Shown: positions 546 through 61,998 of the stretch, in pieces
Numbering within the stretch: the first letter of the stretch is position 1
Layout of the letters: every line of letters begins with the position of its first letter
NCBI GenBank assembly: GCA_028716485.1
Contig: JAQUPS010000001.1
Location: forward strand, 11,935 to 75,934
Reading direction: 5' to 3'
DNA length: 64,000 nucleotides
Source of the DNA: Patescibacteria group bacterium
Lineage (GTDB): Bacteria > Patescibacteriota > Patescibacteriia > Patescibacteriales > WJLG01
Translations under genes and position numbers: made by a program
The notes under the pieces: generated by a model
Seen by the model: the letters and a program-made list of their open reading frames with translations, nothing else
What the model was told of the DNA's origin: nothing
The model's database searches: none

Positions 546-578
546 TTTCGTATTTCGTATTTCGTATTTCGTATTTCG
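546..578. repeat. Heptamer array TACGAAA x4 (minus sense) running directly into the start codon of the 1..545 gene
   Basis: Minus sense TACGAAATACGAAATACGAAATACGAAAATG. Confidence 0.9.
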
Positions 579-689
579 CTCACCTCAATTTAAGGCTCAC
601 AATAACAAAAAACGCGAAACGAATCATTGACTAATCCTCAACGTTGTTATTAAATGATATTATACCACAAAATACCAAGTAAATAAAAT

Positions 690-726
690 ATACGGAATAC
701 GAGATACGAAATACCCGATACGAATT
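690..726. repeat. Heptamer array TACGGAA TACGAGA TACGAAA TACCCGA TACGAATT abutting the relA start
   Basis: + sense, ends ...GATACGAATTATG; inverted relative to the 546-578 array across a divergent spacer. Confidence 0.85.
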
Positions 727-8368: not shown

Positions 8369-8490
8369 ATTGGAGATTAGAAATTTGAGATTTGAAAAAA
8401 ATGACAAAAATAAATTTCTGGTTAATAGCTTTTAACCAACTTTAACACGCCAAAAAGTAAAAATCAACCCCGCGATTAGTTGAATTTTTA

Positions 8491-8559
8491 GCTCAGGGCT
8501 TTGGGCGCAAGGCTTAAGGCTTTTGGTTTGACCCTAACCCAAAGCCCTGCGCTCAGAGC
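8491..8559. repeat. ~70-bp GC-rich imperfect palindromic element (copy A) in the 3' flank of the beta-helix gene
   Basis: gctcagggctttgggcgcaaggcttaaggc...ccctaacccaaagccctgcgctcagagc; shares the core GGGCTTTGGGCGCAAGG / CCCAAAGCCCTGCGC with copy B. Confidence 0.7.
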
Positions 8560-8658
8560 CAAAATACAACAACAAAATCGCCCCTATTCAAAGCTGTCAC
8601 GTTCGCTTGTCAGCCTGACTTTAAAAATCTAATTTTCTAATTACCTAATTTTAATATC

Positions 8659-11079: not shown

Positions 11080-11153
11080 AAAATCAATATTTAATGAATT
11101 AAAATTGTCAGAATATTATACTACATTTTGGTAAAACAATAAAGTCCAATCTG

Positions 11154-11229
11154 GCTCGGGGCTTTCGGCGCAAGGCTCAAGGTCTGCATAAAATCATTGA
11201 CCTTGCGCCCTGAGCCCAAAGCCCTGCGC
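11154..11229. repeat. ~76-bp GC-rich palindromic element (copy B), 3' of ndk and upstream of the beta-helix gene
   Basis: gctcggggctttcggcgcaaggctcaaggtc...gaccttgcgccctgagcccaaagccctgcgc; arms pair over about 25 bp. Confidence 0.7.
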
Positions 11230-11293
11230 TAAAAAATCAAACAAAAACCACCACCCTTTTAAGGGCGGTGGCTAGGTCAAAATAATTCTTAAT

Positions 11294-12064: not shown

Positions 12065-13549
12065 CTAATTAATGGAATGTGGCAAGACAGGATATTTTCC
12101 TCCGAAACACCCGCCGCAAATTCCGCAATTATAGGTTTCTTTCACGCACCACATAAGATCGGCGAGAGAGAGATAATACAATTTGTCGGCGCCAATTTCC
12201 TTGCGAACCGCTTCCTTGTCCTTTTGAAAAGCGACTAATTCCCGGCAAGTCTGGAAATCCATCCCGTTGGGACAAATATTCCTGATCGGCGGAAATCCCA
12301 CGCAAAAAATCACTTTTCTGGCGCCGGCGGCGCGCAGCATTTCAATCACCGCCTTGGCCGTATTGCTGCGCACAATTGAATCGTCCACGACAATCACCGT
12401 CCGCCCGTTCACCGCTTCTTTTTTCAGATGCAATTTTTTACGGACCACATTCACTCTTTCTTCCGTGTTCACGCAAGTGAACGACCTGGATTGCCCGCCC
12501 AGCGGACCGTGCGCGCGCTGCAAAATTTCCTCGTAAATCTCTTCGTAGCGGAAGCCGGTTTGAGCCAAGTGGCGAGCCAATCCTTCGGCAAAATGCTTGC
12601 CCGAATCAAGGATGGGGACGACCAGCGGCTTATCATACAAATCCTGTTCGCTTAGACGGCTACCCATTGTCTGGCCGATCAAGCGCCGGAAATCTTCATG
12701 ATAAACGCCATTGATTTGGGAACGCGGATTGGAAAAATAAATCGCTTCGAAGATGCAGAGACACGGATCAGGCTCGGCGTAAATCACGCTTTTTGGTTTG
12801 AGCTTGCCTTTTTCGAAAATCACCATTTCACCCGGCAGCACATCCCGCCAATACTCGGCGTCAGGAAATTGGTCAAAGGCCACGGTTTCCGAACAGACCA
12901 AATGCCCTTTGTCGATTTTAGCCAGAGAAAGCGGCCGGTTGCCAAACCGGTCGCGGATGGCGAAAATCCTCTCGCTATTGATGATCAAGAGCGAATACGA
13001 ACAGGCGATTTTTTGCACCGCGGAAACAACAGCCTTCTCAATATCGTTCTTGCCGGACTGGAGAATCAGGTGAATAAAATTTTCCGTATCAGTAGTCGTA
13101 TTGTAAGCGGCTCCGGCGCGGATCAATCCGGCTTTTATTCTTTCGACATTAACCAATGTTCCGTTATGCGCTATTGCCAGGGGTCCGTATTTAGATTCGA
13201 CCAATGTCAATGGCTGAACATTGGCCACGAAATCCGGATCGCCTTGTGTCGCGTAACGGCAATGGCCGATCGCCGCGGTTCCGCGCAGTTCTGTCTGAAA
13301 ACGCGTTTGATCATACCAGCGGAACTGAACGCTGAACGGCCCGATACGCCGCCGATGATCCAATTTACCGGCATGGCAAGCGACGATTCCGCCGCCCCGC
13401 TCGCCTCTTCGTTCGATAGAATTAATCATCTGCGCGGTCATCCAGGAAGCATCAGACACGTTAATCGCCGCGGCCAAGCCGCAGCTTTCCGGCATCACTT
13501 CCCGCAGATCGTCATCCAAATCCCGGTTATTGAAACAAAGTATTCTCAT
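12065..13549 (-). CDS. purF: Amidophosphoribosyltransferase-like (class II glutamine amidotransferase + type I PRTase domain)
   Basis: Ntn-type Cys after a propeptide (ESCGLAAAI), GHCRYATQG, PRTase motif IVVDDSIVRSNTAKAVIEML, C-terminal Cys cluster. A real SD AGGGAGGGG lies upstream. Confidence 0.7.
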   Translation of the reverse strand: MRILCFNNRDLDDDLREVMPESCGLAAAINVSDASWMTAQMINSIERRGERGGGIVACHAGKLDHRRRIGPFSVQFRWYDQTRFQTELRGTAAIGHCRYATQGDPDFVANVQPLTLVESKYGPLAIAHNGTLVNVERIKAGLIRAGAAYNTTTDTENFIHLILQSGKNDIEKAVVSAVQKIACSYSLLIINSERIFAIRDRFGNRPLSLAKIDKGHLVCSETVAFDQFPDAEYWRDVLPGEMVIFEKGKLKPKSVIYAEPDPCLCIFEAIYFSNPRSQINGVYHEDFRRLIGQTMGSRLSEQDLYDKPLVVPILDSGKHFAEGLARHLAQTGFRYEEIYEEILQRAHGPLGGQSRSFTCVNTEERVNVVRKKLHLKKEAVNGRTVIVVDDSIVRSNTAKAVIEMLRAAGARKVIFCVGFPPIRNICPNGMDFQTCRELVAFQKDKEAVRKEIGADKLYYLSLADLMWCVKETYNCGICGGCFGGKYPVLPHSIN

Positions 13550-13593
13550 TTGCCCCTCCCTTGTTTTATATCATTAATGAAAAGAACTGGAAC

Positions 13594-13755
13594 CAGAACC
13601 CATCTCAAAAATAATCTCCGGCTCGTTTTCGGTCTTTTTTGGCTGCAAAATCCGAAAATTTCGTCAGTATAGCCCGCTATTCCTCCTCAATTTTCGGATT
13701 TTTCGCCTAAAAAATCCGCGAAAACGACCAGAAGCTATTTTTGAGATGGGTTCTG
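13594..13755. repeat. 162-bp nested inverted repeat (20-bp perfect outer arms CAGAACCCATCTCAAAAATA, 14-bp perfect inner arms AAAATCCGAAAATT); candidate MITE or structured RNA
   Basis: Outer arms at 13594-13613 and 13736-13755; inner arms at 13648-13661 and 13689-13702; 27-nt loop. Confidence 0.7.
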
Positions 13756-13893
13756 ATTATTTTATTCTTAAACTGAAAAAATATCAAGAGCAAAAAATCA
13801 CGTAACCCATATCACACAACACGTAACGGTACTAAAAATATTTTCTTGACAATTTTAATTTTTTTTCTTCCGGCGCAATGAGCAGATTTTTTT

Positions 13894-13984
13894 GTTACGT
13901 GTTACGTGTTACGTGTTACGTGTTACGTGTTACGTGTTACGTGTTACGTGTTACGTGTTACGTGTTACGTGTTACGTGTTACGT
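13894..13984. repeat. Tandem heptamer array, 13 x GTTACGT, abutting the stop codon of the 13984..14838 gene
   Basis: Exact 7-nt periodicity over 91 nt. The + ORFs MLRVTCYV... in the track are translation artefacts of this array. Confidence 0.95.
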
Positions 13985-14838
13985 TACCTCTTGCTTCTTA
14001 CTTCAATTTTCGTCCCGTCGCTGGTGATTTTGACCGTACCATTGAGATCGGTGCGGAAAATTTTCGCGCCGGCTTTTTGCAATCGCCAGAGCGTGTCGGC
14101 CTTGGGAAAACCGAATTGATTATTCAGGCCGCATTCGATGACGGCGATTTGCGGCGCGACAACGCGCAAAAAATCCAGCGAGGAGGAAGTTTCCGAACCG
14201 TGATGGCCGACTTTGAGAACGTCGGATTTTAGATTAATTTTTTCGGCAAGCAATTCGGCTTCGGTCTTATCGCCAGCGTCGCCGGTAAATAAAAAAATTT
14301 TATTTTTATAAACCAAGCGCGTGACGATAGAATCTTCATTCAAATCCGCGCCCAAATCGTTTTTGCCCGGATAGATGATTTCTAGAACCAGATCATCGCC
14401 CAAAGTTATTTCTTCCTCGCCGACCGCGATAATCACCGGCGTTTCCTTTGCCGCCCGCACTTTTAAAAATTCTTCAAAGGGCGGAGCGTTACTGGAGGCG
14501 TTGGTCATCAAAATCCGGTCAACGCGGTATTTTTTCAAAACATCGATCAAGCCGGAAATATGATCGTCGTGCGGATGAGTGTTGATTACCAAATCGATAT
14601 GCCGGTCAAGCCAGGGCAAGTTTCTTCCCAGCTCGGAAAGAACTTTATTATCCGGCCCGCCGTCGATCAGAATATTCTGCCCATACGGCGTCTTGATCAA
14701 TTCCGCGTCGCCTTGCCCGACATCCAAAAAGTCAACTTCCAAAAATTTCTGCGGATGATAAAAAAATAAAAAAAGGCAAATACCTAAAAGGGTTATTGCC
14801 GCGCCGCCTAATAAAAAAAATTTTGCCCTCCTTTGCAT
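13984..14838 (-). CDS. ComEC/Rec2-type metallo-beta-lactamase-fold hydrolase with N-terminal TM anchor
   Basis: LDVGQGDAELI...INTHPHDDHISG...KVGHHGSETSSS. Confidence 0.8.
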   Translation of the reverse strand: MQRRAKFFLLGGAAITLLGICLFLFFYHPQKFLEVDFLDVGQGDAELIKTPYGQNILIDGGPDNKVLSELGRNLPWLDRHIDLVINTHPHDDHISGLIDVLKKYRVDRILMTNASSNAPPFEEFLKVRAAKETPVIIAVGEEEITLGDDLVLEIIYPGKNDLGADLNEDSIVTRLVYKNKIFLFTGDAGDKTEAELLAEKINLKSDVLKVGHHGSETSSSLDFLRVVAPQIAVIECGLNNQFGFPKADTLWRLQKAGAKIFRTDLNGTVKITSDGTKIEVRSKR

Positions 14839-14867
14839 AATAAAATTATAGCAAATTTTTCGTGTAA

Positions 14868-14895
14868 CCTAAAAACGGCCATTAAGCCGTTTTAG
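14868..14895 (-). terminator. Rho-independent terminator after the 14909..15568 gene
   Basis: AACGGC-cattaa-GCCGTT hairpin followed (minus sense) by TTTTT. Confidence 0.6.
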
Positions 14896-14908
14896 TTTGT
14901 AATAAACT

Positions 14909-16304: not shown

Positions 16305-16502
16305 GATCGAATCTCCTTTGGTTTAAAATTTTTTTATTTCCTGACAATAGTAATTAATTTTGAAAAGAACAAACGCTGAAAGAACATCAACTCGAATCCA
16401 TTTTTTCTCCCTGTTAAGATTATATGATTAATTAACGACTATTAACAGGGTAGCAAAAAAAAATGGAATCCGTCAAACTTTAGTCAAATTATATTCTAAA
16501 AT

Positions 16503-16527
16503 GCAAAAACCGCCCGATCAAGGGCGA
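16503..16527 (-). terminator. Rho-independent terminator after rpsT
   Basis: CGCCC-ttgatc-GGGCG followed by TTTTTG on the minus strand. Confidence 0.65.
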
Positions 16528-16541
16528 TTTTTGAAGGAATT

Positions 16542-16811
16542 TTATTTGGCTTTTTTCATCTTGTTCAGGCGCAAGTTGAGGCGGGATTTGCGGCGGGCGG
16601 CGGTATTTTTCTTAATGACGCCTTTCTGGGCGGCCTTGTCGAGCGCTTTCATAGTCAATCTGACTAATTCAGCGGCTTTGGCATCCTTAGCTTCGATCGC
16701 CTTATGGCTTTTCTTGATCAAGTCTTTGATGCTCACTTCAATATTATTATTGAAGGCGCGGCGCTTGATGTTCTTGCGATACTCTTTCGCGGCTGATTTG
16801 ATATTAGGCAT
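16542..16811 (-). CDS. rpsT: 30S ribosomal protein S20
   Basis: MPNIKSAAKEYRKNIKRRAFNN...KGVIKKNTAARRKSRL. Confidence 0.85.
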   Translation of the reverse strand: MPNIKSAAKEYRKNIKRRAFNNNIEVSIKDLIKKSHKAIEAKDAKAAELVRLTMKALDKAAQKGVIKKNTAARRKSRLNLRLNKMKKAK

Positions 16812-16815
16812 AATT

Positions 16816-16857
16816 TTCGTATATCGTATGTCGTATATCGTATTTCGTATATCTCGA
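16816..16857. repeat. Heptamer array TACGA[AT/CA]A x5 running into the rpsT start codon
   Basis: Gene sense: ATACGAAATACGATATACGACATACGATATACGAAAATTATG. Confidence 0.85.
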
Positions 16858-16931
16858 CATAAATTATATTAATATTATTTTTTCATTTTGAGATTTTAAT
16901 TTTACATTCTCTTGTCTGGCTGCTGGGAATT

Positions 16932-17077: not shown

Positions 17078-17197
17078 TATCGGATATCAGATGTCGGATT
17101 TCAGATGTCGGATAAACCAGTTAAATAATTTTATTTAAACAAAATATTTTGAACACTAAATCCGATATCTGACTTCCGAAATCTGAAATCCGGTATG

Positions 17198-17269: not shown

Positions 17270-17362
17270 CCTTCAAAGTGCAAAGTACGAGGTGCGAAGT
17301 GCGACTTGATTATATCAAAATATAATTCGCACTTCGAAATTTGCACTTCGAAATTTGGATTG

Positions 17363-23812: not shown

Positions 23813-23883
23813 AATGCTAAATGATGAATGCTAAATTATTTTTTAATTTCATCTCAGCATTCATCATTTAGCATTTAGCATTT
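23813..23883. repeat. Palindromic element built from AATGCTA-type heptamers (copy 1), abutting the secA stop
   Basis: aatgctaaatgatgaatgctaaatt...tcagcattcatcatttagcatttagcatt; near-identical element at 27696..27767. Confidence 0.8.
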
Positions 23884-27227: not shown

Positions 27228-27692
27228 TCAAATCTTTTCAAATCTTATCGTCTTGCCGGCTTCATCAAGATAAAATCGCAGGCGGGAAAATTTTCCGGAC
27301 AAGGCGTCCTTAAGCCAATATTGGTCATCGTCCCACATTTCCGCGCGCGGAAAATTTTCTCTCTTGAACCATCTTAATTCGCCTTCGCCGCCATCTCGCA
27401 ATTCCCCTTCCCATTCTTTAACTGAAAAAACATGGACTGCCCAATTTTTCTGTTCGTGATCCGGCGGCCAGATATATTCGATATAGCCGATCTTTTCCAA
27501 ATTTTTCACTTACACTCCCGCCTCTTCCCGAATTTCCCTGATGGCTGCGGCCAAGATATCTTCGCCAGGTTCGGCTTTGCCGCCGACGCCATTCCATTTG
27601 CCAACGCCCAAACCGCGCGATTTTTTCTGCAACAGAATTTCGCCGTTATCGTTAATAAAATAATTCAAGCTGGCGACCGTAAAAATTTTCAT
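27228..27692 (-). pseudogene. NUDIX hydrolase (MutT-like) interrupted by a single in-frame TAA at 27510-27512
   Basis: ORFs 27510..27692 (Nudix box GGKAEPGEDILAAAIREIREEAGV) and 27228..27509 are in the same frame, separated only by TAA; the C-terminal part continues the NUDIX fold. Confidence 0.6.
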
Positions 27693-27695
27693 AAA

Positions 27696-27767
27696 AATGC
27701 TAAATGATGAGTGCTAAATGCTAAATTAAATAAAAAATTCAGCATTCATCATTTAGCATTTAGCATT
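27696..27767. repeat. Palindromic AATGCTA-heptamer element (copy 2) between the NUDIX start and the cca stop
   Basis: aatgctaaatgatgagtgctaaatgctaaatt...tcagcattcatcatttagcatttagcatt. Confidence 0.8.
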
Positions 27768-35234: not shown

Positions 35235-36272
35235 CTAAAATTTAATATCAAGAAAGAAGACGGCTAATCCGATGGCCGCGACAACGCCGGCGATCAGCCA
35301 AAACCGCATCACGATTTTCGGTTCCGACCAGCCCAGCGCCTGGAAATGATGATGAATCGGCGCGGATTTGAAAACTTTCTTGCCGCCGCGCAATTTTTTG
35401 GAAGTAAGCTGGATGATTACCGACAAAGATTCAATGACAAAAATGAAACCGACCAAGGGCAAAATAAAAACGCTGTTAGTCAATAAGGCGATGACGCCGA
35501 GCGCGATTCCCAAGCTCATTGCTCCGGTATCGCCCATATAAAATCGGGCGGGGGCGATGTTAAACCAGAGAAAAGCGGCCAGGGCGCCGATGATCACTCC
35601 GCAAAAAGCGGCTAAGTCATATCTGCCCAAAGCGAAAGAAATGACGGCAAAAGACGCAAAGGCGATCAACAAAGTTCCGCCGGCCAAGCCGTCCAGGCCG
35701 TCGGTTTCGTTGACGGAAAAAGCGGTAGCGACGATGACAAAAATAAAAAACGGAATATACCAGGCGCCGATTTCCAGATTTTTCCAGAATGGAATATGCA
35801 AAGTCGTCCAATCCAATTTAAAATAAAACCAGGCGGCGCCGAGCGCGGCGATAGCCGTATAAATAATCAGCCGATGTTTCATCCGCAGGCCACCCTTGCC
35901 TTGGCCGCGGACATCCAGCCAGTCGTCAAACAAGCCGACTATGGCGCTGAACAGCAAAATCGCCAGCGGCAAAAGAGTTTCCGGACGGGAAAAAAAGTTC
36001 AAGGCCGAAAGCCCGGGAAAAATCAATCCCAAAAAATAAAAAAAGGCGATAAAAATAGTTAGCGTTCCCCAGATCAAAATCCCGCCCATCGTCGGCGTGC
36101 CGGCTTTATGCAGATGCAAGGCGGTGAAGATCGGCGTATTGCCGTTGTTGCGGATTTGCTTGCCCAGTTTATATTTATACAAAAAGTGGGTCAAAATCGG
36201 CGCGCAGGCAAAAGCAAAAATAAAAGATAGCGAAGCGAGTAGTAAAATTCGGACAAGTTGGAGCTCGGGCAT
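35235..36272 (-). CDS. mraY: Phospho-N-acetylmuramoyl-pentapeptide transferase
   Basis: GTPTMGGILI, HHHFQALGWSE. The ORF-track start at 36290 is a GTG inside the heptamer array; the ATG at 36270-36272 is more likely. Confidence 0.9.
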   Translation of the reverse strand: MPELQLVRILLLASLSFIFAFACAPILTHFLYKYKLGKQIRNNGNTPIFTALHLHKAGTPTMGGILIWGTLTIFIAFFYFLGLIFPGLSALNFFSRPETLLPLAILLFSAIVGLFDDWLDVRGQGKGGLRMKHRLIIYTAIAALGAAWFYFKLDWTTLHIPFWKNLEIGAWYIPFFIFVIVATAFSVNETDGLDGLAGGTLLIAFASFAVISFALGRYDLAAFCGVIIGALAAFLWFNIAPARFYMGDTGAMSLGIALGVIALLTNSVFILPLVGFIFVIESLSVIIQLTSKKLRGGKKVFKSAPIHHHFQALGWSEPKIVMRFWLIAGVVAAIGLAVFFLDIKF

Positions 36273-36435
36273 ATTTTTTTCACGTAACACACATCACGCA
36301 ACACGCAACATGATGAGCGAATGATTTAATCAGCCAATCTGCTTTTTTTAAATAACCGTCTCACTGGTAAAATAGTAAAGAAAATTATTGACAAAAATAT
36401 TTTTCTTCCTATTTTTAAGTGCGGAAAAAACAAAT

Positions 36436-36547
36436 TGTTATGTGTTATGTGTTATGTGTTATGTGTTATGTGTTATGTGTTATGTGTTATGTGTTATGTG
36501 TTATGTGTTATGTGTTATGTGTTATGTGTTATGTGTTATGTGTTATG
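36436..36547. repeat. Tandem heptamer array, 16 x TGTTATG, between the 36553..36975 gene stop and the mraY upstream region
   Basis: Exact 7-nt periodicity over 112 nt. A related array GTTGCGT GTTGCGT GATGTGT GTTACGT abuts the mraY start (36273-36310). Confidence 0.95.
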
Positions 36548-36552: not shown

Positions 36553-36975
36553 TTACCGGAAATTCATCCAATAGATCGGGCCAAGCGCCAAAGATAAAAA
36601 AATATTAACCATCAAGGCGGCGGCCAGAAGGATGTGGGCAATAAACTTAAAATCCTTTTTTTTCAAAAAGACGAACAACAGCAAAAAATTCAGCGCGCTG
36701 ACAAATAAGCCGAGAATGGGAATCATAAATAATTTGTTGGCATCGCCGACCAGATCAATGCCGAAATCAACGGTGAAGTGCAGGATCGTCAGGTTGCTGC
36801 CGACGCGGCGCGCGAAAAGCCAAACAAATCCCCAAAGCGAAATATTCTGTAAAAGGAGGATGGCCAGATAAACTTTGATAAAAAGCAAACCGAAAACTTC
36901 CGCCAAATTATAAGAAATTTTGCCTCTCAACAAATCAAGGTGATGATAAATTTCGGATAAACCAAGCATAAACAT
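36553..36975 (-). CDS. Small polytopic membrane protein, hypothetical
   Basis: 140 aa, 4 predicted TM. Confidence 0.5.
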   Translation of the reverse strand: MFMLGLSEIYHHLDLLRGKISYNLAEVFGLLFIKVYLAILLLQNISLWGFVWLFARRVGSNLTILHFTVDFGIDLVGDANKLFMIPILGLFVSALNFLLLFVFLKKKDFKFIAHILLAAALMVNIFLSLALGPIYWMNFR

Positions 36976-45772: not shown

Positions 45773-45833
45773 TTAGCATTTGTGGATAAAAAAAACGGCG
45801 CCTTTTGCAAAGCGCCGGTTTAAAATCCGTCTA

Positions 45834-46331: not shown

Positions 46332-47615
46332 TCAAGGGGCGAGCAGAACAGCCAAGGTTTCGCGGGCGCATTTCTCCCAGCTGAATTCTTTAGCTCTGGC
46401 CAAGCCCTTGGCAATCAATTCCGCTCTTAATTTTTCATCAAAAATTATTTTCTCCATCGCGCCGGCCATATCTTCTTTGTCGTGCGGATTGAAATACAGA
46501 GCGGCGTCGCCGGCCACTTCGCGCAATGCCGGAATATCGGAAACGGCTGCCGGCAGGCCGCAAGAGAGAGCCTGTAAAATTGTTATGCCGAAACCTTCAT
46601 GCAAGGAAGGAAGAATATAAGCGTCAGCGCCGTTAAAAATATAAGGGACATCTTCTTCGTTCGCCCAGCCGGGCATGATCACATCGTTTTGCAGCCCGAA
46701 TTCATGGATAATATATTTTATTTCGTCAAAGCCGAAGCTCGCATCGCCGATTAAGACTAGTTTTTGCGCCAGATTATGGCGGCGATGTTTTAATTTGACG
46801 AACGCTTCCAGCAGCAGCGGAGTATTTTTTTTCTTTTCCAACCGGCCGGCATAGAGAAAATACGGCCGAGTAATTCCGTATTTATTCAAAACCTCGGCTA
46901 TTTTTGCCTCATCATTGATTTTTTTATAGAGTAAATCATTGAAACCGTTATAAATGACAGTTATTTTTTTCTCCAAGCATTTGTACATATCAAGTATTTC
47001 GTCGCGGGAAAATCGGGAAACGGTAATTATTTTTTTTGAATTTTTTATAGAGTAGACAGTCGACCAATTAAGATAATCAGTGGAGTTGGCGCCGTATTTT
47101 CCCAGCGTAAAAAGGCGGACAAGAAAATTTATCACTCTCCTTCCCCGGCCCTTTTCCGGGCCAAGCTTATTTTCTTCGTAAAGTTCGGCCTCTCTTTTGA
47201 AAGCGACATCATGAATCGTATTGATTGTTCTTTTCGGCCTGATCAAGGGCAGTCCGTGAGCCGGAATAAATAGAACGTCGGGTTTATGCCAAATCATCCA
47301 GATTGACAGGCGGCCCAAGGTCCAAAAATAAGAAAAAGGCCAGCGCAGGACTTTGGCCTTGAAATTATGATGGGGGCTTTTAATGATTTGATAGCCGTCG
47401 CGGTCATATTCCGGATGCCAATCATTTTTTTCCCGGCGAATAAAATTCAATTCCGTCAAATCGGCCAAATCGGCCGAGAGCGGTTTATCAGTATACAAAA
47501 CAAATTGGTTATCCTTATCAAGCTGGGCAAAATATTTGATCAGGTAATAAGAATACCATTCAGTGCCGCTTTTGTGAGTTCGATTGGCGCGCGAAGCGTC
47601 GATGCCGATTAACAT
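46332..47615 (-). CDS. Glycosyltransferase family 4
   Basis: EGFGITILQALSCGLPAAVSDIPALREV. The ORF-track start at 47648 lies inside the heptamer array; the start is more likely the ATG at 47613-47615 (MLIGID...). Confidence 0.85.
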   Translation of the reverse strand: MLIGIDASRANRTHKSGTEWYSYYLIKYFAQLDKDNQFVLYTDKPLSADLADLTELNFIRREKNDWHPEYDRDGYQIIKSPHHNFKAKVLRWPFSYFWTLGRLSIWMIWHKPDVLFIPAHGLPLIRPKRTINTIHDVAFKREAELYEENKLGPEKGRGRRVINFLVRLFTLGKYGANSTDYLNWSTVYSIKNSKKIITVSRFSRDEILDMYKCLEKKITVIYNGFNDLLYKKINDEAKIAEVLNKYGITRPYFLYAGRLEKKKNTPLLLEAFVKLKHRRHNLAQKLVLIGDASFGFDEIKYIIHEFGLQNDVIMPGWANEEDVPYIFNGADAYILPSLHEGFGITILQALSCGLPAAVSDIPALREVAGDAALYFNPHDKEDMAGAMEKIIFDEKLRAELIAKGLARAKEFSWEKCARETLAVLLAP

Positions 47616-47617: not shown

Positions 47618-47645
47618 CGTAACACGTAACACGTAACACGTAACA
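47618..47645. repeat. Heptamer array 4 x GTGTTAC (gene sense) running directly into the GT4 start codon (…GTTACGAAATG)
   Basis: + strand cgtaacacgtaacacgtaacacgtaaca. A second degenerate array TGTGTTA TGCGATA TGTGTTA CGTAAAG lies at 47663-47690. Confidence 0.9.
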
Positions 47646-47691
47646 CAAATCAAAAAAATATTATGTGTTATGCGATATGTGTTACGTAAAG

Positions 47692-48699
47692 TTATTTTGT
47701 CGCAAGAATGGATCTCTTATAAGAATCCAGATTGTCCAGCGCAATGCCCGTCCCTTTCGCAACGCACAAGAGCGGTTCATCGGCGATATAGACCGGTACG
47801 CCGATCGTGCGCGAAACCAATTGATCGATATTGCGCAGAAGTGAACTGCCGCCGGCCATCACGATCCCTTTGTCCATGATATCGGCGGACAATTCCGGCG
47901 AAGTATCATTCAAAACTTTCTTGATCGCCACGATAATCGCTTCCAATTCATTTTGAATCGCCTCGGTCACGTCGTCGCTGATCACATTGATACTGCGCGG
48001 CAAACCGCTGACCACGTCCCGCCCGCGGACTTCCATCGTCAATTTATTTTTCAGATACAGCGCGGCGCCGACATTGATTTTTATCTCTTCAGCCGTGCGT
48101 TCGCCGATGGAAAGATTGTATTTGCGGCGGATATGTTCGGCAATCGCCACGTCGAATTTATTACCGCCGACTTTGACGGAATTGACGCAGACGATGCCGC
48201 CCAAGGAAATCACGGCCATTTCCGCGGTGCCGCCGCCGATATCCACGATCATATGGCCGGAAGAAGAACCAATGGGAATATCCGCGCCGATGGCCGCGGC
48301 AATCGGCTCTTTAATAATGTAGGCGGCTTTGGCGCCGGCGGAAATCGTCGCCTCGATAACGGCACGGCGTTCGGTGGAAGAAATGCCGGCCGGCACGGCG
48401 ACCATCACTTCCGGCCGGAACAGCCGGAAATTCCCCAGAGTCTTATTGATAAAATACCTGAGCATCGCTTCGGTGGTGCGGTAATCGGCAATCACTCCGT
48501 CCTTCAACGGCTTGACGGCGATGATATTATCCGGCGTGCGCCCGAGCATTTCCTTGGCTTCATTTCCCACGGCCAAAATCTTGCGGTCGCTGATCGAAAC
48601 CGCGACGACGCTCGGCTCGTTAATCACAATACCCTTCCGGGGCAGATGCACCAGAGTATATGTCGTTCCCAAGTCGATTCCGATTGATTTGATAAACAT
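47692..48699 (-). CDS. mreB: Rod shape-determining actin homolog MreB
   Basis: IGIDLGTTYTLV, actin-fold phosphate/adenosine motifs, 335 aa. Confidence 0.9.
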   Translation of the reverse strand: MFIKSIGIDLGTTYTLVHLPRKGIVINEPSVVAVSISDRKILAVGNEAKEMLGRTPDNIIAVKPLKDGVIADYRTTEAMLRYFINKTLGNFRLFRPEVMVAVPAGISSTERRAVIEATISAGAKAAYIIKEPIAAAIGADIPIGSSSGHMIVDIGGGTAEMAVISLGGIVCVNSVKVGGNKFDVAIAEHIRRKYNLSIGERTAEEIKINVGAALYLKNKLTMEVRGRDVVSGLPRSINVISDDVTEAIQNELEAIIVAIKKVLNDTSPELSADIMDKGIVMAGGSSLLRNIDQLVSRTIGVPVYIADEPLLCVAKGTGIALDNLDSYKRSILATK

Positions 48700-56610: not shown

Positions 56611-56684
56611 GGCGGCTTCCTACTCTACCAGGGCTCAGGCCCAAGTACCATCGGAGCAAGCGGGCTTAACTTCTGAGCTTGCCC
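56611..56684 (-). other. Truncated 5S rRNA-like fragment (3' two-thirds of 5S), tandem to the intact 5S
   Basis: CTACTCTACCAGGGCTCAGGCCCAAGTACCATCGG is identical to the 3' part of the adjacent 5S, then diverges into a hairpin plus CCGCACCTTTTTG. Confidence 0.6.
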
Positions 56685-56711
56685 CGCACCTTTTTGCTTT
56701 TTGAGTACAAT

Positions 56712-56830
56712 ATTCCCGGCGCTGGCCTACTCTACCAGGGCTCAGGCCCAAGTACCATCGGCGCTAATGAGCTTAACTTCTGTGTTCGGGATGGGAACAG
56801 GTGTAGCCTCATTGCGAAAGTACCGGGAAT
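56712..56830 (-). rRNA. rrf: 5S ribosomal RNA
   Basis: Minus sense ...CCCATCCCGAACACAGAAGTTAAGCTCATTAGCGCCGATGGTACTTGGGCCTGAGCCCTGGTAGAGTAGG...; helix I closes with CCCGG/CCGGG. Confidence 0.85.
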
Positions 56831-57105
56831 ATTAGACTCAAAAAGGTGCGGGGTGAGAGATGGGATCAGGTGTGACCCCGCCGCGATGCCACCAAAATAA
56901 TAAAATCAAATTGTTAAAAAAACTCTAACAACTGAATACTATAGATAATATGAGATAAAAAATTCTTCTTCATCTTAGAAACAAAAATGTGGGAAAATCT
57001 TCCGGTTTATTAGTACCCCTCCGCTCAATGCCTTACGGCACTTACACGTAGAGCCTATCAAGGCAGTATTCTCCTGCCAACCTGTGAAACCTAATCTTAG
57101 AGACA

Positions 57106-57136
<31 letters not shown>

Positions 57137-57216
57137 AAAACCGAAGGTAGCTACTCGGCAATGCCCCTGGCGGGACAGTCGATACACCAGAGCTTCGTTA
57201 TTCCCGGTCCTCTCGT

Positions 57217-57998
57217 CATGTATAGTTCACTTATTTCTAAGTGCATAGACTATATCTTCACCCTCTGTTCCGTATTCGTAAAAAGGAACGAATTCGGGGT
57301 AGGGGTCGGCATATTATAGAAGTTTAGATCCGGATTATCCGGTACCTTCTATATCTCCCTGCTTGGGATCAGTCGTTACGGGGTCAAACCAAGTATCTTT
57401 TTCATCCGCGCGCCGGTCTGGCGCTGGGCGGACTTATAATTATCTTTCTGAATTCCGATGATGCAAGACAAAATATTTCCGCGATCTTTTTTAGACAATT
57501 CAGACAGACGTTTATTCGTTAACATGCTTGTCGCCTTTAACAAATATTCCGCCTGGCTTTTTTTGAATCTGATAAACGGATAAAGCTTTGCCAAAATTTT
57601 ATGGCATTGCTCATGTCCATTTATTCGCAATTCGGTCATTCCGTCTTTTCTTTTTGACAGATAACCGATGCCAAGACTTTGTCTTAGCCAATGAAGCGGC
57701 TCGTCATGGCGGCTGTCTTGATAAAAACAGATAGTAGCCATGAAGCGCCAGCCTCTCGGCGAATCGCTTCGTTTTTTAATTTGCAACATCAGACTGCCGT
57801 CTCCATCAAGGAAACCGGCAATATACGCCAAATCTGTTGCTTTTTTCGTGATACTTAATCGACTTCCCACGGTATTGACTTAAAATTAATTATGGTCCTT
57901 AAGCATTATGATACCATAAATATTTTGAAGCTTCCACCGTTATTAGCCGTATATTCGAGCGGGATTACTCCCGCAAGTAGCATGACCCTTTCGGGTCT
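57217..57998 (-). mobile_element. Putative group I intron A in 23S (near the sarcin-ricin loop region, about E. coli 2656) carrying a LAGLIDADG ORF
   Basis: Exon ...CCCTAGT | intron ... CATG | ACGAGAGGACC exon. Intron ends in G and the 5' exon ends in U. Boundaries by eye. Confidence 0.45.
57376..57870 (-). CDS. LAGLIDADG homing endonuclease (intron-encoded, single-motif type)
   Basis: LAYIAGFLDGDGS motif; 164 aa; same strand as 23S. Confidence 0.85.
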   Translation of the reverse strand: MGSRLSITKKATDLAYIAGFLDGDGSLMLQIKKRSDSPRGWRFMATICFYQDSRHDEPLHWLRQSLGIGYLSKRKDGMTELRINGHEQCHKILAKLYPFIRFKKSQAEYLLKATSMLTNKRLSELSKKDRGNILSCIIGIQKDNYKSAQRQTGARMKKILGLTP

Positions 57999-58072
57999 AC
58001 TAGGGAATAGACTCTGCAAGTTTCCGCGACCATAGTAGATAGGAGACCAACCTGTCTTACGCATTATTTTAT

Positions 58073-58753
58073 CGCTTGTTACCAAACGTATGGACTATAC
58101 CACCATCCGGTTTTAACCGGAGGTCAACGTGTTAGCAATGCTCTTCGCATCACTCTCTCCCTGTGCGGGATCAGTCTCTACGGGGTTAAATTATGCCTCT
58201 TCCTTTTTTTGGAGTAGTTAAGTTCCCTGAACTTATCTATCATACCAGCCAATTTTTCAAAATCTTTTTGATCTCTGACGTTTTCTTTCATCTCAAATAT
58301 TTTAATCATCAATTCCGCCTGACGTCTTTTTAAGATCAAAAAAGGTTTTACTTGGGACAGAAAATCGACTATCTCATCTTTTTTATTGATGACATATTCC
58401 ATTATTCCGTCTTTTCGTTCTCTCATATAACCGGCTCCGGCAAGAGCGCAAACTCTCGCGAAGTTTTCTTTCTCTTTTTTGGCTTGGAAAAATGCGATGC
58501 AAGGAGAAATCTGGAATCCGAACCGATAGGTCGGATTTGGTTTCAATCTTACATAGATGCTTCCATCGCCATCGAGAAAACCGGCTAAATAAGCCAAATT
58601 TTTGACTGTGATGTTTTTAGACATAATCAACTTCCCTCGGTATTATCCTAACATGTGACAGGTTATTTTGCAATAACTAATGCCAGGACTTCACCGATAT
58701 GAGTTGACTTTTTCGAATTCGATTACTCGAATAAGCCGCCAAATTGACGGTTT
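58073..58753 (-). mobile_element. Putative group I intron B in 23S (about E. coli 2586-2593) carrying a LAGLIDADG ORF
   Basis: Exon CGAGCTGGGTT | intron | ...ATGCGTAAGACAGGTTGG exon (homolog of TAGAACGTCGTGAGACAGTTCGG); 74-nt exon between introns A and B matches E. coli spacing. Confidence 0.5.
58178..58630 (-). CDS. LAGLIDADG homing endonuclease (intron-encoded)
   Basis: LAYLAGFLDGDGSIYV; 150 aa; the C-terminus ...HNLTP parallels ...LGLTP of the first endonuclease. Confidence 0.85.
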   Translation of the reverse strand: MIMSKNITVKNLAYLAGFLDGDGSIYVRLKPNPTYRFGFQISPCIAFFQAKKEKENFARVCALAGAGYMRERKDGIMEYVINKKDEIVDFLSQVKPFLILKRRQAELMIKIFEMKENVRDQKDFEKLAGMIDKFRELNYSKKRKRHNLTP

Positions 58754-58772
58754 GAACCCAGCTCGCGTGCCT

Positions 58773-58803
<31 letters not shown>

Positions 58804-59356
58804 GCTTCTACACCCCCAGGATGAGACGGGCCGACATCGAGGTGCCGAACCTGGTCGTCGCTGTGGACGCTTGGACCAGACTAGCCTGTTATCCCTAGAG
58901 TAGCTTTTATCCGATGAGCTTCCACCATCCTATATTGGATGGTCGGATCACTAAGTTCTGCTTTCGCAACTGCTCGACGTGTCAGTCTTGCAGTAAAGCC
59001 GGCTTGTGCCTTTGCGCTATCTCCCGGGTTTCCATTCCGGGATAGCCGACCTTTGTAAACGCCTCAGTTACTTTTTATGAGGCATCCGCCCCAGACAAAC
59101 TACCCACCAGACACTGTTCCCCGGAAGGATTCACTTCCTAGGGTAAGAATTTAGAACAAACAAGGGTGGTATCTCACTGGTGCCCGAAGGCTCCCACCTA
59201 TTCTGAACATGCGTATCCCAAATCCAATATCAAGTTATAGTAAAGCTTCATAGGGTCTTTTCGTCCAGCTATGGTTAATGAGCATCTTCACTCATCCTGC
59301 AATTTCGCCGAGTTCTTCGTTGAGACAGCGCCCAAGTAGTTACGCCATTCAAGCAC

Positions 59357-59388
<32 letters not shown>

Positions 59389-59395
59389 GCACCTT

Positions 59396-60430
59396 CTTAA
59401 TATTTCTATTAAGCTTGGACTATTTCTTATCCCAAATTAGGGATCTCAATGTTTAGTCTCTGAGGATTAAAAATTAATCCTGCGCGTTTGCCCCGTGTAT
59501 TTTCAGATTTTTACCGCCAACTTAATGGCTTGGTACTGAAAATCTTTTGAGGATTTCCACGCATTTTATTGAGTATTTATAGACAACTATAACTTTCGTT
59601 ATAGCCAGGCAGCGGATTTATATGAATCGTCCCAGTCTTTCTGCAATCTATTATTTTCAAATAAATTGCAAAACCTTAGGACGATTCATTAATGTTAAAC
59701 CTCTTTTAGATTTCCCGAGTCTTCGGGACTTTATGTTTCCATAAAGATCGGACTATATCATTCACGGCTTTCCGGACGGAAAGCGCGCGATTCGGCGTAT
59801 AGTCTCTGGGGATTATCTACTCGCGATTGTTCAAAATCGCTTTGGTTGTATTTTCTCTTTCTTCCGCGGCCGGCATTTAATTCTTCTCTTAGCTCAACGA
59901 TCTTTTTTAAACCGTCTTCATTTAAATGCTCTTTGCCGAAAACTAATTCGGCGATCCGGCAGAAGATAGAAAAATTCTTCTTTTTCGTTTGGGAAAGGAA
60001 ATAAAATTTCCGAAAAAACGGAATCACTTTCTCTTGAATGGAAAGCGGGTTGCTGACTACAAACATATGCAATCCGTCGCGCCGTTCAACTAATCTGCCG
60101 CAGCCTAAAATCTTTTTAAACTGCGATAAGATATAACTTTCCTTTTGGGAAACGTTAAATGTCAGAACGACTTGCCAGCCCATTTTATGGTCCAGCCTCT
60201 TTCTCAAAGAGACATTGAAACTTCCTTCGCCATCGGTAAAACCGGCAAAATAGTAACCTATTTCCGGTTTTATGTTGTTTAACCAATTTTGATTCATAGA
60301 TTCTTTCCTGCGGATTGTCCGCCAATGACTTTAAAAGTCATGTTAACTTTTTGATTTTTACTGCGGATTAAATTTCCCACGAGTACAAAAAGTTTGGGCG
60401 GATGTTCCCGCAAATAGCCAAATTTTTTAA
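59396..60430 (-). mobile_element. Putative group I intron C in 23S (about E. coli 1917-1923 region, domain IV) carrying a LAGLIDADG ORF
   Basis: Exon ...GATAACTATGAAC | AT-rich intron | AAGGTGCTAAGCGAAATTCCTTGTCGGGTAAGTTCCGAC exon. Confidence 0.5.
59758..60297 (-). CDS. LAGLIDADG homing endonuclease (intron-encoded)
   Basis: YYFAGFTDGEGSF motif; 179 aa. Confidence 0.8.
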   Translation of the reverse strand: MNQNWLNNIKPEIGYYFAGFTDGEGSFNVSLRKRLDHKMGWQVVLTFNVSQKESYILSQFKKILGCGRLVERRDGLHMFVVSNPLSIQEKVIPFFRKFYFLSQTKKKNFSIFCRIAELVFGKEHLNEDGLKKIVELREELNAGRGRKRKYNQSDFEQSRVDNPQRLYAESRAFRPESRE

Positions 60431-61726: not shown

Positions 61727-61828
61727 CCCGCACCTTTTGCACAAACATCATTATTTATCATCGAATATAATGCTTATGATTATGTCAATAATTTTTATTA
61801 TCAACACCTTTTTTCAAAAGGTGCGGGA
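61727..61828 (-). other. 23S intervening sequence (IVS) in helix-25 region, ORF-less, bounded by CCCGCACCTTTTG / CAAAAGGTGCGGG
   Basis: AT-rich ~75-nt insert between inverted repeats; the following exon aligns to E. coli 23S around 600-700. Confidence 0.6.
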
Positions 61829-61961
61829 TTAGGCAAGCCGCATACAATAAACTCGTTGGCTCATTCTTCAATAGGCACGCCGTCACCCTGGCTTGCGCCA
61901 AGGCTCCGACTCCTTATAAGTATATGGTTTCAGGTACTATTTCAACTCCCTCACCGGGATG

Positions 61962-61998
<37 letters not shown>

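Follow-up and report, generated by a model that had tools for sequence, protein, structure and literature searches.

Heptanucleotide arrays of a Patescibacteria genome as most likely products of replication slippage within hairpins at gene boundaries

Introduction

The closest described counterparts of the repeats considered here are the heptameric simple sequence repeats (SSRs) of Xanthomonas (GGGAATC) and Nostoc (GGGGAYT), which comprise 2-26 units, mostly 4, and are nearly all intergenic (Rehm et al. 2015, PMC4692102). Xanthomonas genomes each hold 70-75 convergent inverted pairs of these SSRs, possibly forming stem-loops, and in both genera the length and sequence of the repeats vary among related species while their position is kept, the function being unknown (PMC4692102). 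Units of 7 nt are over-represented among the long SSRs of prokaryotes, which are intergenic, as the work of Mrazek et al. 2007 is summarised in PMC4679880 and PMC4692102, and a proposed cause of this preference is slippage of the polymerase (PMC4692102, PMC4679880). Another heptamer, the direct repeat TAACTGA of marine Beggiatoaceae, cyanobacteria and Bacteroidetes, is present in 2-6 copies, with one inverted pair reported (MacGregor 2015, PMC4679880); it stands directly upstream of start codons, its phylogenetic distribution is scattered, and a translational role has been suggested (PMC4679880). Borg elements are known for perfect tandem repeats that evolve fast and originate locally, likewise in genomes of uncultivated organisms (PMC9879509).

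The arrays analysed here lie in a stretch of 64,000 nt (the window) of a Patescibacteria (CPR) MAG. Like the SSRs of Xanthomonas and Nostoc, they have a 7-nt unit, form perfect or near-perfect intergenic arrays of mostly about 4 units and occur in inverted pairs; however, whereas those genera have one G-rich family capable of forming G-quadruplexes, the window holds more than 10 unrelated unit sequences that are not G-rich, and GTTACGT/GTTATGT, lacking a G-tract, does not conform to the G-rich unit (GGGNATC or GGGGAYT). The arms here also stand directly at stop and start codons, and the host is a small-genome CPR bacterium. Compared with prokaryotic long heptanucleotide SSRs in general, the arrays are much denser, occupying about half of the intergenic regions, and inverted pairing is common. 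With TAACTGA they have in common a heptamer containing TAA, which provides stops in all three frames in one orientation, and a location next to start codons; unlike TAACTGA, the unit is GTAACAC/ATAACAC in the sense direction, reaches 16 copies and has inverted partners as the rule. The cyanobacterial STRR heptanucleotide repeats have other unit sequences, so that there is no membership by sequence, and the Borg repeats resemble the present arrays in their perfection but consist of variable longer units, often in-frame within genes, and not of inverted heptamer pairs.

The REP and BIME sequences of enterobacteria are dispersed imperfect palindromes between the genes of operons, whose transcribed stem-loops stabilise the upstream mRNA; REPs show no periodicity of 7 nt; they conform to a single consensus throughout the genome and are linked to RAYT transposases. 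The palindromes of the window are likewise dispersed, imperfect and intergenic but, unlike REPs, have a 7-nt periodicity. Contingency loci of host-adapted bacteria are hypermutable perfect SSRs in the ORFs, promoter spacers or 5' UTRs of specific surface genes (see also PMC12721329); the present arrays are also perfect, but they follow stop codons and are part of a genome-wide pattern. A literature search returned no paper on heptamer repeats in Patescibacteria or on the GTTACGT/GTTATGT repeat.

Sequence and read support of the arrays

According to TRF, array 1 comprises 13.1 copies of TGTTACG at 13893-13984 (period 7, 100% matches, score 184), array 2 comprises 16.0 copies of TGTTATG at 36436-36547 (100% matches, score 224) and array 3 comprises 4.1 copies of CGTAACA, the reverse complement of TGTTACG, at 47618-47646 (100% matches). 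All three consist of perfect head-to-tail copies of a length far above chance, as heptanucleotide SSRs do, and the two-unit 14-mer has 38 matches in the window, against 0.33 expected from shuffles. These results bear out a previous sequence-only reading of the window, in which the three arrays, the single C/T that separates the units of the two long ones and their position as extremes of a heptamer system had been pointed out; copy numbers of the period-7 arrays gather near 4, and 13.1 and 16.0 stand apart from the rest. That reading had also discarded CRISPR, rightly, since repeats of 23-50 nt with unique spacers of similar length are ruled out by the period of 7 and by the lack of any spacers. 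On the gene-sense (minus) strand array 1 reads ACGTAAC, with TAA in each unit, and array 2 reads ACATAAC. The variable base is C in 13 of the 13 units of array 1 and T in 16 of the 16 units of array 2, each array being homogenised to its own variant, and slippage with expansion, already put forward from the sequence, is the best explanation of their perfection.

Both long arrays had been placed near minus-strand stop codons, and this holds: the last base of array 1 overlaps the TAA at 13984-13986, and array 2 lies 5 nt from the TAA at 36553-36555. For array 3, described as running into a start codon, the start has to be corrected: the TTG 'start' at 47648 inside the array is an artefact of the ORF finder, and the true ATG (47615-47613) lies 2 nt past the array.

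In the Logan assemblies of two runs (SRR22315506 and SRR22315509), contigs enter both long arrays and end after about 4 units. Contigs from two independent read sets thus run into arrays 1 and 2, which indicates that the arrays are present in the reads; the exact copy numbers of 13 and 16 are those of the assembly, the short-read contigs breaking inside the arrays. Searches for polymorphism at the same loci gave no match for the purF-like protein queried against genome contigs, one unrelated chance match in a scan of one metagenome with a junction 20-mer, and no record in exact-protein look-ups of the mraY-like and mreB proteins, none of them yielding a long contig of the same species.

A hairpin element in three copies

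Each array is accompanied by an inverted partner arm that had escaped the previous reading, at 13799-13827, 36281-36309 and 47664-47686, respectively. The degenerate arm of array 1 consists of the units CACGTAA, CCCATAT, CACACAA and CACGTAA and a final C; that of array 2, detected by a pattern search with 2 mismatches and by folding, consists of CACGTAA, CACACAT, CACGCAA and CACGCAA and a final C; and that of array 3, an exact match to the pattern, reads TGTGTTATGCGATATGTGTTACG. The irregular sequence CGTAAC-N-CATATC-N-CA-N-AACAC is common to all three partner arms. As a search pattern (CGTAACNCATATCNCANAACAC) it has three occurrences in the window, one next to each of the arrays, where chance would give 0: exactly at 13801-13822 and at 47665-47686 (minus strand), and with 2 mismatches at 36283-36304; it is absent from 129 other loci. 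The presence of the same irregular arm at all three loci identifies them as three copies of one hairpin element. It is thus well supported that the loci are paralogous copies of one small intergenic inverted-repeat element with arms of 7-nt units, and that one arm retains the old irregular shared sequence and the other has been homogenised to a perfect array. The same degree of support applies to the expansion of the array at two loci, from the 4-5 units that are usual to 13 and 16, in the way in which replication slippage would expand a hypermutable heptanucleotide microsatellite. As in the pairs of Xanthomonas and Nostoc, opposite-strand heptamer arms lie within one intergenic region at all three loci, and, as in REP/BIME sequences, an imperfect intergenic palindrome is present in three dispersed copies that share an arm in the 64 kb of the genome examined. 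The spacers of copies 1 and 2 have only weak, borderline similarity. A MITE was considered and rejected: inverted arms are present, but direct reading of the flanks revealed no target-site duplication at the three loci.

All of the neighbouring genes are on the minus strand. At locus 1, array 1, the homogenised and expanded arm, abuts the stop codon of an MBL-fold/ComEC-like gene (13984-14838; Pfam Lactamase_B, with an identical protein annotated in a Patescibacteria MAG), and an AT-rich spacer, the loop of copy 1 (13828-13892, with TTGACA at 13847-13852), separates it from the degenerate arm; downstream of the element lies a purF-like amidophosphoribosyltransferase gene (12065-13549; Pfam GATase_6/7 and Pribosyltran). 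Directly past the degenerate arm in the direction of transcription there is a promoter-like site for the purF-like gene, TTGATA-17-TAAAAT on the minus strand at 13759-13787 (10/12 in a consensus scan, a consensus match only). At locus 2, array 2, the expanded arm, follows a 140-aa ORF without a Pfam family (36553-36975), and the degenerate arm lies 8 nt upstream of the ATG, assigned from the translation at 36272-36270, of an mraY-like glycosyltransferase-4 gene (35235-36272, start corrected to ATG 36272; Pfam Glycos_transf_4, MraY signature). The spacer of copy 2 (36310-36435) holds a promoter-like TTGACA-16-TATTTT on the plus strand at 36388-36415, a consensus match, and the suggestion that the arrays are transcribed repeats draws on this one match, at locus 2 only. 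At locus 3 the degenerate arm lies 5 nt from the stop codon (47692-47694) of mreB (47692-48699; Pfam MreB_Mbl, E = 1e-132) and the homogenised array 3 lies next to the start of a family-1 glycosyltransferase gene (46332-47615; assigned by Pfam, translation ...YE/MLIGIDASRA, with an NCBI protein of 427 aa that has the same start).

Folded as RNA, copies 1 and 2 each reach a predicted dG of -57 kcal/mol (z -2.3 and -4.5, respectively), the degenerate arm of copy 1 pairing with the stop-proximal units of its array, and copy 3 reaches -26.7 kcal/mol (z -3.1). At the predicted base of the copy 3 hairpin, UAA(C) of mreB pairs with the G of the downstream AUG plus UUA. When the sequences are compared directly, the T variant is seen to pair with the partner arm at 21 of 28 bases, whereas the C variant would give 23 of 28; the slightly worse pairing of the T variant fits slippage rather than selection for pairing. 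The complementarity of the arms in register is modestly better than after a 7-nt shift, and much of it follows from the unit common to both arms. Rfam searches at gathering thresholds returned rRNA, 5S and tRNAs only, and at relaxed thresholds the interval 13540-14000 gave only sub-threshold plant-miRNA-like matches, which reflect the long hairpins. An intrinsic terminator, with a short GC-rich stem, a loop of 3-8 nt and a U-tract, was sought in the intergenic regions of loci 1 and 2 and is not present there; other parts of the window do have canonical terminators, those at 14866-14897 and 45792-45821 among them.

Period-7 intergenic DNA of the window

Period-7 arrays are present in 22 of the 48 intergenic regions of the window. 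Rows of period 7 or 14 account for 59 of 111 TRF rows, against 0-4 in shuffles, and 43 of these 59 fall in intergenic DNA, which makes up 14% of the window. With the long arrays left out, the lag-7 autocorrelation still reaches 0.359, compared with about 0.30, and the maxima in intergenic DNA are at lags 7, 14 and 21. The usual array has about 4 units and is commonly one of an inverted pair placed at the edges of the intergenic region, beside the upstream stop and the downstream start; direct reading gives 0-5 nt from stop to arm and 2-8 nt from arm to ATG in intergenic regions of 76-262 nt, and downstream genes in this geometry have no Shine-Dalgarno sequence. Arrays without a partner also exist, for example upstream of rpsT (16817-16853), and in cultured isolates, and in the divergent region 546-726 the two arms would fall in different transcripts.

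Most intergenic regions fold far better than shuffled sequence. Comparison of sense and antisense folding reveals no consistent bias, as the energies add up to -704 kcal/mol on the minus strand and -683 kcal/mol on the plus strand, and at the three element loci it is the plus strand that folds better; since a folding advantage of the sense strand is inconsistent, an action of the stems at the RNA level remains a proposal. Neither stop-codon content nor base composition yields a rule for the order of the arms that extends to the other heptamer families of the window.

Related genomes and other phyla

In relatives with 76-81% protein identity the GTTACGT array is absent from the syntenic site, and other heptamer arrays or hairpins occupy the same gene junctions; in relative L008, AAAAGTT x5 begins at the same stop codon as array 1. 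The junction between mreB and the glycosyltransferase gene has a hairpin ending at the ATG in 3 of 4 relatives, the unit being a different one in each (CGTAACA, AATTTTT or AAAATGT), and in one relative the spacer is just 21 nt, which indicates that the hairpin is dispensable there. In the syntenic pilin/relA region the core promoter is conserved, and the period-7 arrays that flank it are orthologous but have drifted in their units. Two pairs of other Patescibacteria species have 4-unit arms that are 100% conserved while loops and flanks vary, and an identical 24-nt arm, from an AATGCTA hairpin, is found at non-syntenic loci of two species. The near-identical relatives L005 and L006 have no indels in their short arrays, a comparison that does not bear on long ones.

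At least 119 loci, spread over more than 100 genomes and many phyla, carry (GTTAYGT)n arrays of 4 or more units; the median copy number is 5.3, and 121 arrays in other genomes range from 4 to 18.6 copies. An inverted partner lies beside 37 of 111 such arrays, against 1 of 1200 shuffled flanks, and the arm order ACRTAAC...GTTAYGT prevails over the opposite order by 32 to 5. Relative to the neighbouring genes, ACRTAAC in sense is modestly favoured (38:23 and 35:20), neither ratio being significant alone and short intergenic regions being a confounder. At the Omnitrophota and Chloroflexota loci, loops are common to several copies.

Proposed mechanism and alternative explanations

The arrays most likely arose by replication slippage within hairpin 'brackets' at gene boundaries, and the reading adopted here, with a probability of roughly 0.55, is that they belong to a slippage-expanded paralogous hairpin element whose stems bracket these boundaries. 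The two arms would pair in the polycistronic transcript into a long stem, the pairing register of which could slide; such a stem would bracket the intergenic region and juxtapose the upstream stop with the downstream start devoid of a Shine-Dalgarno sequence, as the geometry of loci 2 and 3 suggests. Translation of the gene that follows would thereby be coupled or gated, and protection or insulation of the RNA could be a further effect of the stem. At locus 1 a promoter and a leader with a Shine-Dalgarno sequence follow the 3' arm, so that the idea of stop-start coupling does not apply there, and the stem might instead end the upstream transcription unit, before the purF promoter. Units beyond the approximately 4 that can pair would be a surplus product of slippage with no sequence-specific role, although on the sense strand these units supply TAA in all three frames.

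Part of the same evidence can be read as a mutational by-product, a possible explanation to which a minority weight is given: a strong 7-nt slippage bias of the lineage, together with template switching by which the sequence of one arm is transferred to the other, would repeatedly overwrite weakly constrained intergenic DNA and leave arrays and hairpins without function. This would account for unit sequences that vary between loci and between relatives, for folding without strand asymmetry and complementarity that is largely independent of register, for the lone arrays, the hairpin missing at one orthologous junction and the sporadic occurrence of the GTTAYGT unit in many phyla, and it agrees with the polymerase-footprint account of the 7-nt preference in the literature (PMC4679880, PMC4692102). 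Against it stand the placing of the arms at the outermost ends of intergenic regions that vary greatly in length, the retention of arrays with drifting units at orthologous positions in relatives of about 80% protein identity, 4-unit arms fully conserved between species with varying loops, and the strong polarity of arm order. Transposition of a REP- or MITE-like element, with the heptamer arms as terminal inverted repeats and the long arrays as a secondary development, is an unlikely origin of the loci. The absence of target-site duplications at the three loci, the barely similar spacers of copies 1 and 2 and the lack of any transposase or RAYT gene in the 64 kb window speak against it, and syntenic regions keep the loop and change the arms, the opposite of what insertion predicts; on the other hand, the idiosyncratic arm common to the three copies, the dispersal of other hairpin families, the AATGCTA hairpin 24-mer that is identical in a relative at a different locus, and the loops that the Omnitrophota and Chloroflexota copies have in common are all consistent with mobility.

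The strict 7-nt periodicity and the identical 24-nt arm at non-syntenic loci of two species would also be expected of tracts to which a heptad-reading protein binds, whether on DNA or on single-stranded RNA, either a nucleoid protein or an OB-fold protein of the cold-shock/S1 type with one unit per 7 nt, and CspB has been reported on heptamer repeats with one protein per unit (PMC4679880). This is quite improbable, given that more than 10 unrelated units within 64 kb do not fit any single sequence-specific binder and no candidate protein has been identified. Contingency loci, in which gain or loss of units would switch adjacent envelope or metabolic genes, had been raised in the sequence-only reading; this explanation is very improbable and finds no support in the positions of arrays 1 and 2. 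Long perfect SSRs are indeed hypermutable, the surroundings of loci 2 and 3 include genes of the cell envelope (mraY-like, glycosyltransferases, mreB), and array 3 is located in a 5' leader, 2 nt from an ATG; but arrays 1 and 2 follow stop codons outside ORFs, array 1 is about 106 nt from its nearest promoter-like site, the sole good match, and no array lies between -35 and -10 hexamers, so that a change in units at these two arrays cannot shift a reading frame or a -35/-10 spacer. The neighbouring genes are, moreover, housekeeping genes, and the presence of such arrays in about half of all intergenic regions is unlike the distribution of contingency loci. An assembly artefact of low-complexity sequence, finally, is hardly credible: short-read contigs do break inside arrays 1 and 2, and both arrays fall below the usual upper limits of k-mer or read length, so that the assembler could have shaped their size, but contigs of two independent read sets lead from unique flanks into both of them, the sequence of partner arms and flanks is unique, and equally long arrays of the same unit are present in more than 100 other assemblies, including those of cultured isolates.

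Biological meaning

The arrays themselves are microsatellites, a kind of repeat known from other bacteria; in practice, short-read assemblies of CPR genomes break at them, and they would be usable as markers of strains. More interest attaches to the wider pattern: approximately half of the intergenic regions consist of 7-nt-periodic inverted arrays set against stops and starts, and the GTTAYGT hairpin recurs with the same arm order in several phyla. A broader proposition, which goes beyond the slippage-expanded hairpin element and is held to be doubtful, is that Patescibacteria and, sporadically, other phyla possess an undescribed class of gene-boundary 'bracket' hairpins, the locus-specific heptamer arms of which would be kept complementary by concerted evolution (slippage plus arm-to-arm templating). 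Their stems, by bringing together the upstream stop and a downstream start without a Shine-Dalgarno sequence, would punctuate compact genomes in a general way, in the service of translational coupling, insulation or RNA processing. If this were true, the 32:5 polarity of ACRTAAC...GTTAYGT would reflect a real functional or mechanistic constraint, and the arrays of 13 and 16 units would be brackets of this class whose expansion had run out of control. Stems with a function would provide a cheap, sequence-independent organisation of polycistronic expression in bacteria where regulators are few and Shine-Dalgarno sequences rare; if the stems have none, these intergenic regions would constitute an unusually clean record of 7-nt slippage bias and template switching.

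Heptamer arrays and their partner arms

The three heptamer arrays proposed from the sequence alone are present as described: TRF returns 13.1 perfect copies of TGTTACG at 13893–13984 (array 1; score 184), 16.0 of TGTTATG at 36436–36547 (array 2; score 224), and 4.1 of CGTAACA, the reverse complement of the array 1 unit, at 47618–47646 (array 3); a two-unit probe matches the window 38 times, against 0.33 expected from dinucleotide-preserving shuffles. Nearly all genes of the window lie on the minus strand, and the stop-codon proximity claimed for the two long arrays is borne out, the TAA of the MBL-fold/ComEC-like gene (13984–14838) sharing one base with array 1 and that of a 140-aa ORF (36553–36975) lying 5 nt from the end of array 2. 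Array 3 had been said to run into a start codon; the true ATG (47615–47613) of the family-1 glycosyltransferase gene, whose 427-aa product is identical in the NCBI annotation, indeed lies 2 nt beyond the array, and the TTG start given by the ORF finder at 47648 is an artefact inside the repeat. The flanking genes encode proteins identical to those of a Patescibacteria MAG. An assembly artefact is ruled out as the source of the arrays, though not of their exact copy numbers, 13 and 16: in Logan short-read assemblies (SRR22315506 and SRR22315509) the flanking genes are present with identical products, and the contigs of both runs enter both long arrays, which thus exist in independent read sets, and end after about four units, the k-mer limit.

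Each array is accompanied by an inverted, imperfect partner arm: CACGTAA CCCATAT CACACAA CACGTAA C at 13799–13827 for array 1, CACGTAA CACACAT CACGCAA CACGCAA C at 36281–36309 for array 2, and, in reverse complement, CGTAACA CATATCG CATAACA CA at 47664–47686 for array 3. Within the window, the irregular pattern CGTAAC-N-CATATC-N-CA-N-AACAC occurs in these three arms only, with 0 occurrences expected by chance; the three loci are, therefore, paralogous copies of one inverted-repeat element. In each copy, one arm kept the old degenerate sequence while the other was homogenised, into 13 C-variant units in array 1, 16 T-variant units in array 2, and 4 C-variant units in array 3. By direct sequence comparison, array 2 with its T-variant units agrees with the partner arm at 21/28 bases, where the C variant would agree at 23/28, a slightly worse pairing that is predicted by slippage and not by selection for pairing. 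The spacers of copies 1 and 2 share hardly any similarity. In the predicted sense-strand folds, the stop-proximal units of each array pair with the partner arm, with dG of −57 kcal/mol (z −2.3) between the MBL-fold and purF-like genes (locus 1), −57 kcal/mol (z −4.5) between the 140-aa ORF and the mraY-like gene (locus 2), and −26.7 kcal/mol (z −3.1) between mreB and the glycosyltransferase gene (locus 3), where the UAA(C) of mreB is predicted to pair, at the stem base, with the G of the downstream AUG plus UUA.

Period-7 repeats in the intergenic DNA

Period 7 or 14 accounts for 59 of the 111 TRF rows of the window, versus 0–4 in composition-matched shuffles, and 43 of these 59 are intergenic, although intergenic DNA makes up 14% of the sequence; among the 48 intergenic regions that reach 40 nt, 22 contain such a repeat. 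Copy numbers gather around 4, with 13.1 and 16.0 as the outliers. With the long arrays removed, intergenic autocorrelation has its maxima at lags 7, 14, and 21 (0.359 vs about 0.30); coding DNA has period 3 only. The units vary by locus (TTTCGTA, GTCAGAT, GAGATTA, AATATCC, AATGCTA, AAATTCG, TTAAAAG, GGCTTNG, and several AT-only units), and the same region usually holds another array, of the complementary unit, so that most regions with paired arrays fold far better than shuffles. When sense and antisense folding are compared, there is no sense-strand advantage. Arm complementarity in register is only moderately above that at a 7-nt shift, indicating that the stems can slide between registers and that much of the complementarity is due to both arms having one unit. 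The arms usually occupy the extreme edges of the regions (76 to 262 nt), at 0–5 nt from the stop codon and 2–8 nt from the ATG by direct reading, and the genes downstream of these arms have no Shine-Dalgarno sequence. The hairpin families are dispersed in the window: hairpins hp23807 and hp27690 are 84% identical, intergenic regions ig26659 and ig48700 are 86% identical, and TTTCGTAT arrays lie upstream of three different minus-strand start codons.

Heptamer hairpins with arms adjoining the tRNA ends also occupy the tRNA-Pro/tRNA-Phe (17078–17196) and tRNA-Phe/tRNA-Met (17270–17361) spacers, their units being TCGGATA/ATCCGA and AAGTGCG/GCACTT. A lone (ATACGAN)x5 array precedes rpsT, 5 nt from its ATG, and the same unit, in the same sense, is found upstream of the start codons at 545, 727, and 4073; rpsT itself (S20, MPNIKSAAK...; minus strand, 16542–16811) is the real gene there, the 123-aa plus-strand ORF at 16501–16872 being spurious. 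Two paralogous, GC-richer hairpins (8488–8566 and 11144–11232; GGCTTTG GGCGCAA GGCTTAA ... CCCTAAC CCAAAGC CCTGCGC) are also 7-nt periodic, with the irregularities of one arm reflected more clearly in the other than is the case for the AT-rich hairpins.

Conservation in relatives and occurrence in other genomes

The GTTACGT array is absent at the syntenic site in relatives whose MBL-fold protein is 76–81% identical; five AAAAGTT units begin at the same stop codon in one of them (L008), with a trace only in L010 and none in L005. Gene junctions, nevertheless, tend to keep heptamer structure. In the mreB–glycosyltransferase spacer, the hairpin ends at the ATG in the window and in two relatives, built of CGTAACA units in the window, AATTTTT units in L131 (119 nt), and AAAATGT units in L132 (94 nt, with a GC-rich terminator-like hairpin in the loop), and the spacer of a fourth relative is only 21 nt long. 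Between the divergent pilin and relA genes (window 546–726; L005:19706–20010), the core promoter ATTGACTAATCC...TGATATTATACCACAAAA is conserved, and the period-7 arrays adjoining both start codons are orthologous, with drifted units (TTTCGTA vs TTnnGTA, ATACGAG vs ATTAGAG, window vs L005); the L005 relA leader has gained an additional GAGATTA/AATCTCT hairpin. The AATGCTA-unit hairpin, present twice in the window (23813–23883 and 27692–27767), shares an identical 24-mer, ATTCATCATTTAGCATTTAGCATT, with L131:1299–1365 at a different junction (DUF4012–mreB), at about 80% protein identity, which suggests either dispersal or sequence constraint. Relatives show the period-7 signal too, less strongly than the window. 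Within each of two species pairs elsewhere in Patescibacteria, the arms of a 4-unit GTTATGT hairpin are 100% conserved, and the loops and flanks differ.

When one genome from each GTDB species was scanned, (GTTAYGT)x4 was found at no fewer than 119 loci, the matches listed coming from Chloroflexota, Lentisphaerota, Gammaproteobacteria, Campylobacterota, Bacteroidota, Omnitrophota, and many Patescibacteria, and including the isolates Marinobacterium nitratireducens, Scandinavium hiltneri, Paenibacillus sp. Soil766, Nitrosomonas sp. Nm51, and Methylonatrum kenyense. Among these matches, the median copy number is 5.3 and the maximum 18.6, placing the 13–16-unit arrays at the upper end without making them unique, and an inverted partner (at least 16/21 bases, within 300 nt) accompanies 37 of 111 arrays, versus 1 of 1200 shuffled flanks. 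The arm order ACRTAAC...GTTAYGT is found in 32 of these 37, in several phyla (p = 7e-6), a count that is not fully independent since some loci are related to each other. Duplex thermodynamics cannot account for this polarity, which looks identical from either strand. The loops measure 7 to 161 nt, and some (L079, L110, and L116) contain canonical terminator hairpins.

Other features of the window

The purF-like leader (13591–13758, minus strand) forms a near-perfect hairpin of about 70 bp (dG −96 kcal/mol, z −11) between a promoter-like site and a Shine-Dalgarno sequence; a search of Rfam gave no family for it, only sub-threshold miRNA-precursor-like matches. Shine-Dalgarno sequences are found in a minority of genes only (e.g., starts at 4849, 13549, 16304, 30724, 46262, and 56133), and in many genes TATAAT lies 5–8 nt upstream of the ATG (11905, 14838, 15568, 35036, 39806, and 52659, minus strand), a proximity that suggests leaderless mRNAs. 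The 20-nt perfect palindrome CCTGCCTGCCGGCAGGCAGG (period 4), intergenic at 5004, 16932, 20752, and 21968 and in relatives at L005:14660 and L008:9921, is a separate REP-like family recurring in these genomes. As is typical of CPR, the 23S rRNA gene (about 56960–62750, minus strand) is interrupted by three LAGLIDADG homing-endonuclease ORFs (57376–57870, 58178–58630, and 59758–60297); further insertions (about 61730–61830 and 62410–62600) are flanked by CCCGCACCTTTTG/CAAAAGGTGCGGG inverted repeats, and a partial 5S-like duplicate (about 56620–56700) adjoins the 5S rRNA (56714–56827).

Origin and possible function

We infer that replication slippage of a heptanucleotide microsatellite gave rise to the arrays and maintains them, and that array and partner form stems in transcripts. 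With low-to-moderate confidence, these stems may enclose the intergenic region like brackets and place stop and start codons side by side, so that a terminating ribosome, on opening the 5′ arm, would release a start codon that lacks a Shine-Dalgarno sequence and is held by the 3′ arm. This would couple or gate translation, and might also protect or insulate the RNA. Loci 2 and 3 fit such coupling, as do several other junctions. At odds with it are locus 1, whose 3′ arm precedes a promoter-like site (TTGATA-17-TAAAAT), the leader hairpin, and a Shine-Dalgarno sequence; the divergent region, whose arms would fall in different transcripts; the lone arrays; and the relative with the 21-nt spacer; because of these four misfits and the lack of a sense-strand folding advantage, a purely mutational origin with no function remains a serious rival. 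The dispersed copies give partial support to a mobile MITE- or REP-like element, but the lack of target-site duplications at the three loci, and the conservation of loops where arms have changed, contradict it. The diversity of units speaks against a single specific heptad-binding protein, and contingency switching, raised by the sequence-only reading, is unlikely given the positions of the arrays and how common they are across the window.

Published work already describes heptamers as the preferred unit of long SSRs in many bacteria and ascribes this to polymerase slippage (PMC4679880, PMC4692102). Among described systems, the nearest is formed by the heptameric SSRs found between genes in Xanthomonas and Nostoc, with 2–26 units, most often 4, 70–75 convergent inverted pairs per genome, and a position kept between species while length varies (PMC4692102); it is followed by the STRR repeats of cyanobacteria and by the TAACTGA repeats of Beggiatoaceae, located upstream of start codons (PMC4679880). 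The window arrays are of the same kind, and differ in the many non-G-rich unit families in one small genome, in arms adjoining stop and start codons, in the dispersal of hairpin families, and in the CPR host lineage; a literature search found no paper on such repeats in Patescibacteria, nor on the GTTACGT/GTTATGT repeat sequence. In summary, the finding is real but essentially ordinary, amounting to two heptanucleotide microsatellites that have expanded; less ordinary is the surrounding lineage-wide system of heptamer hairpins, which is worth a proper survey.
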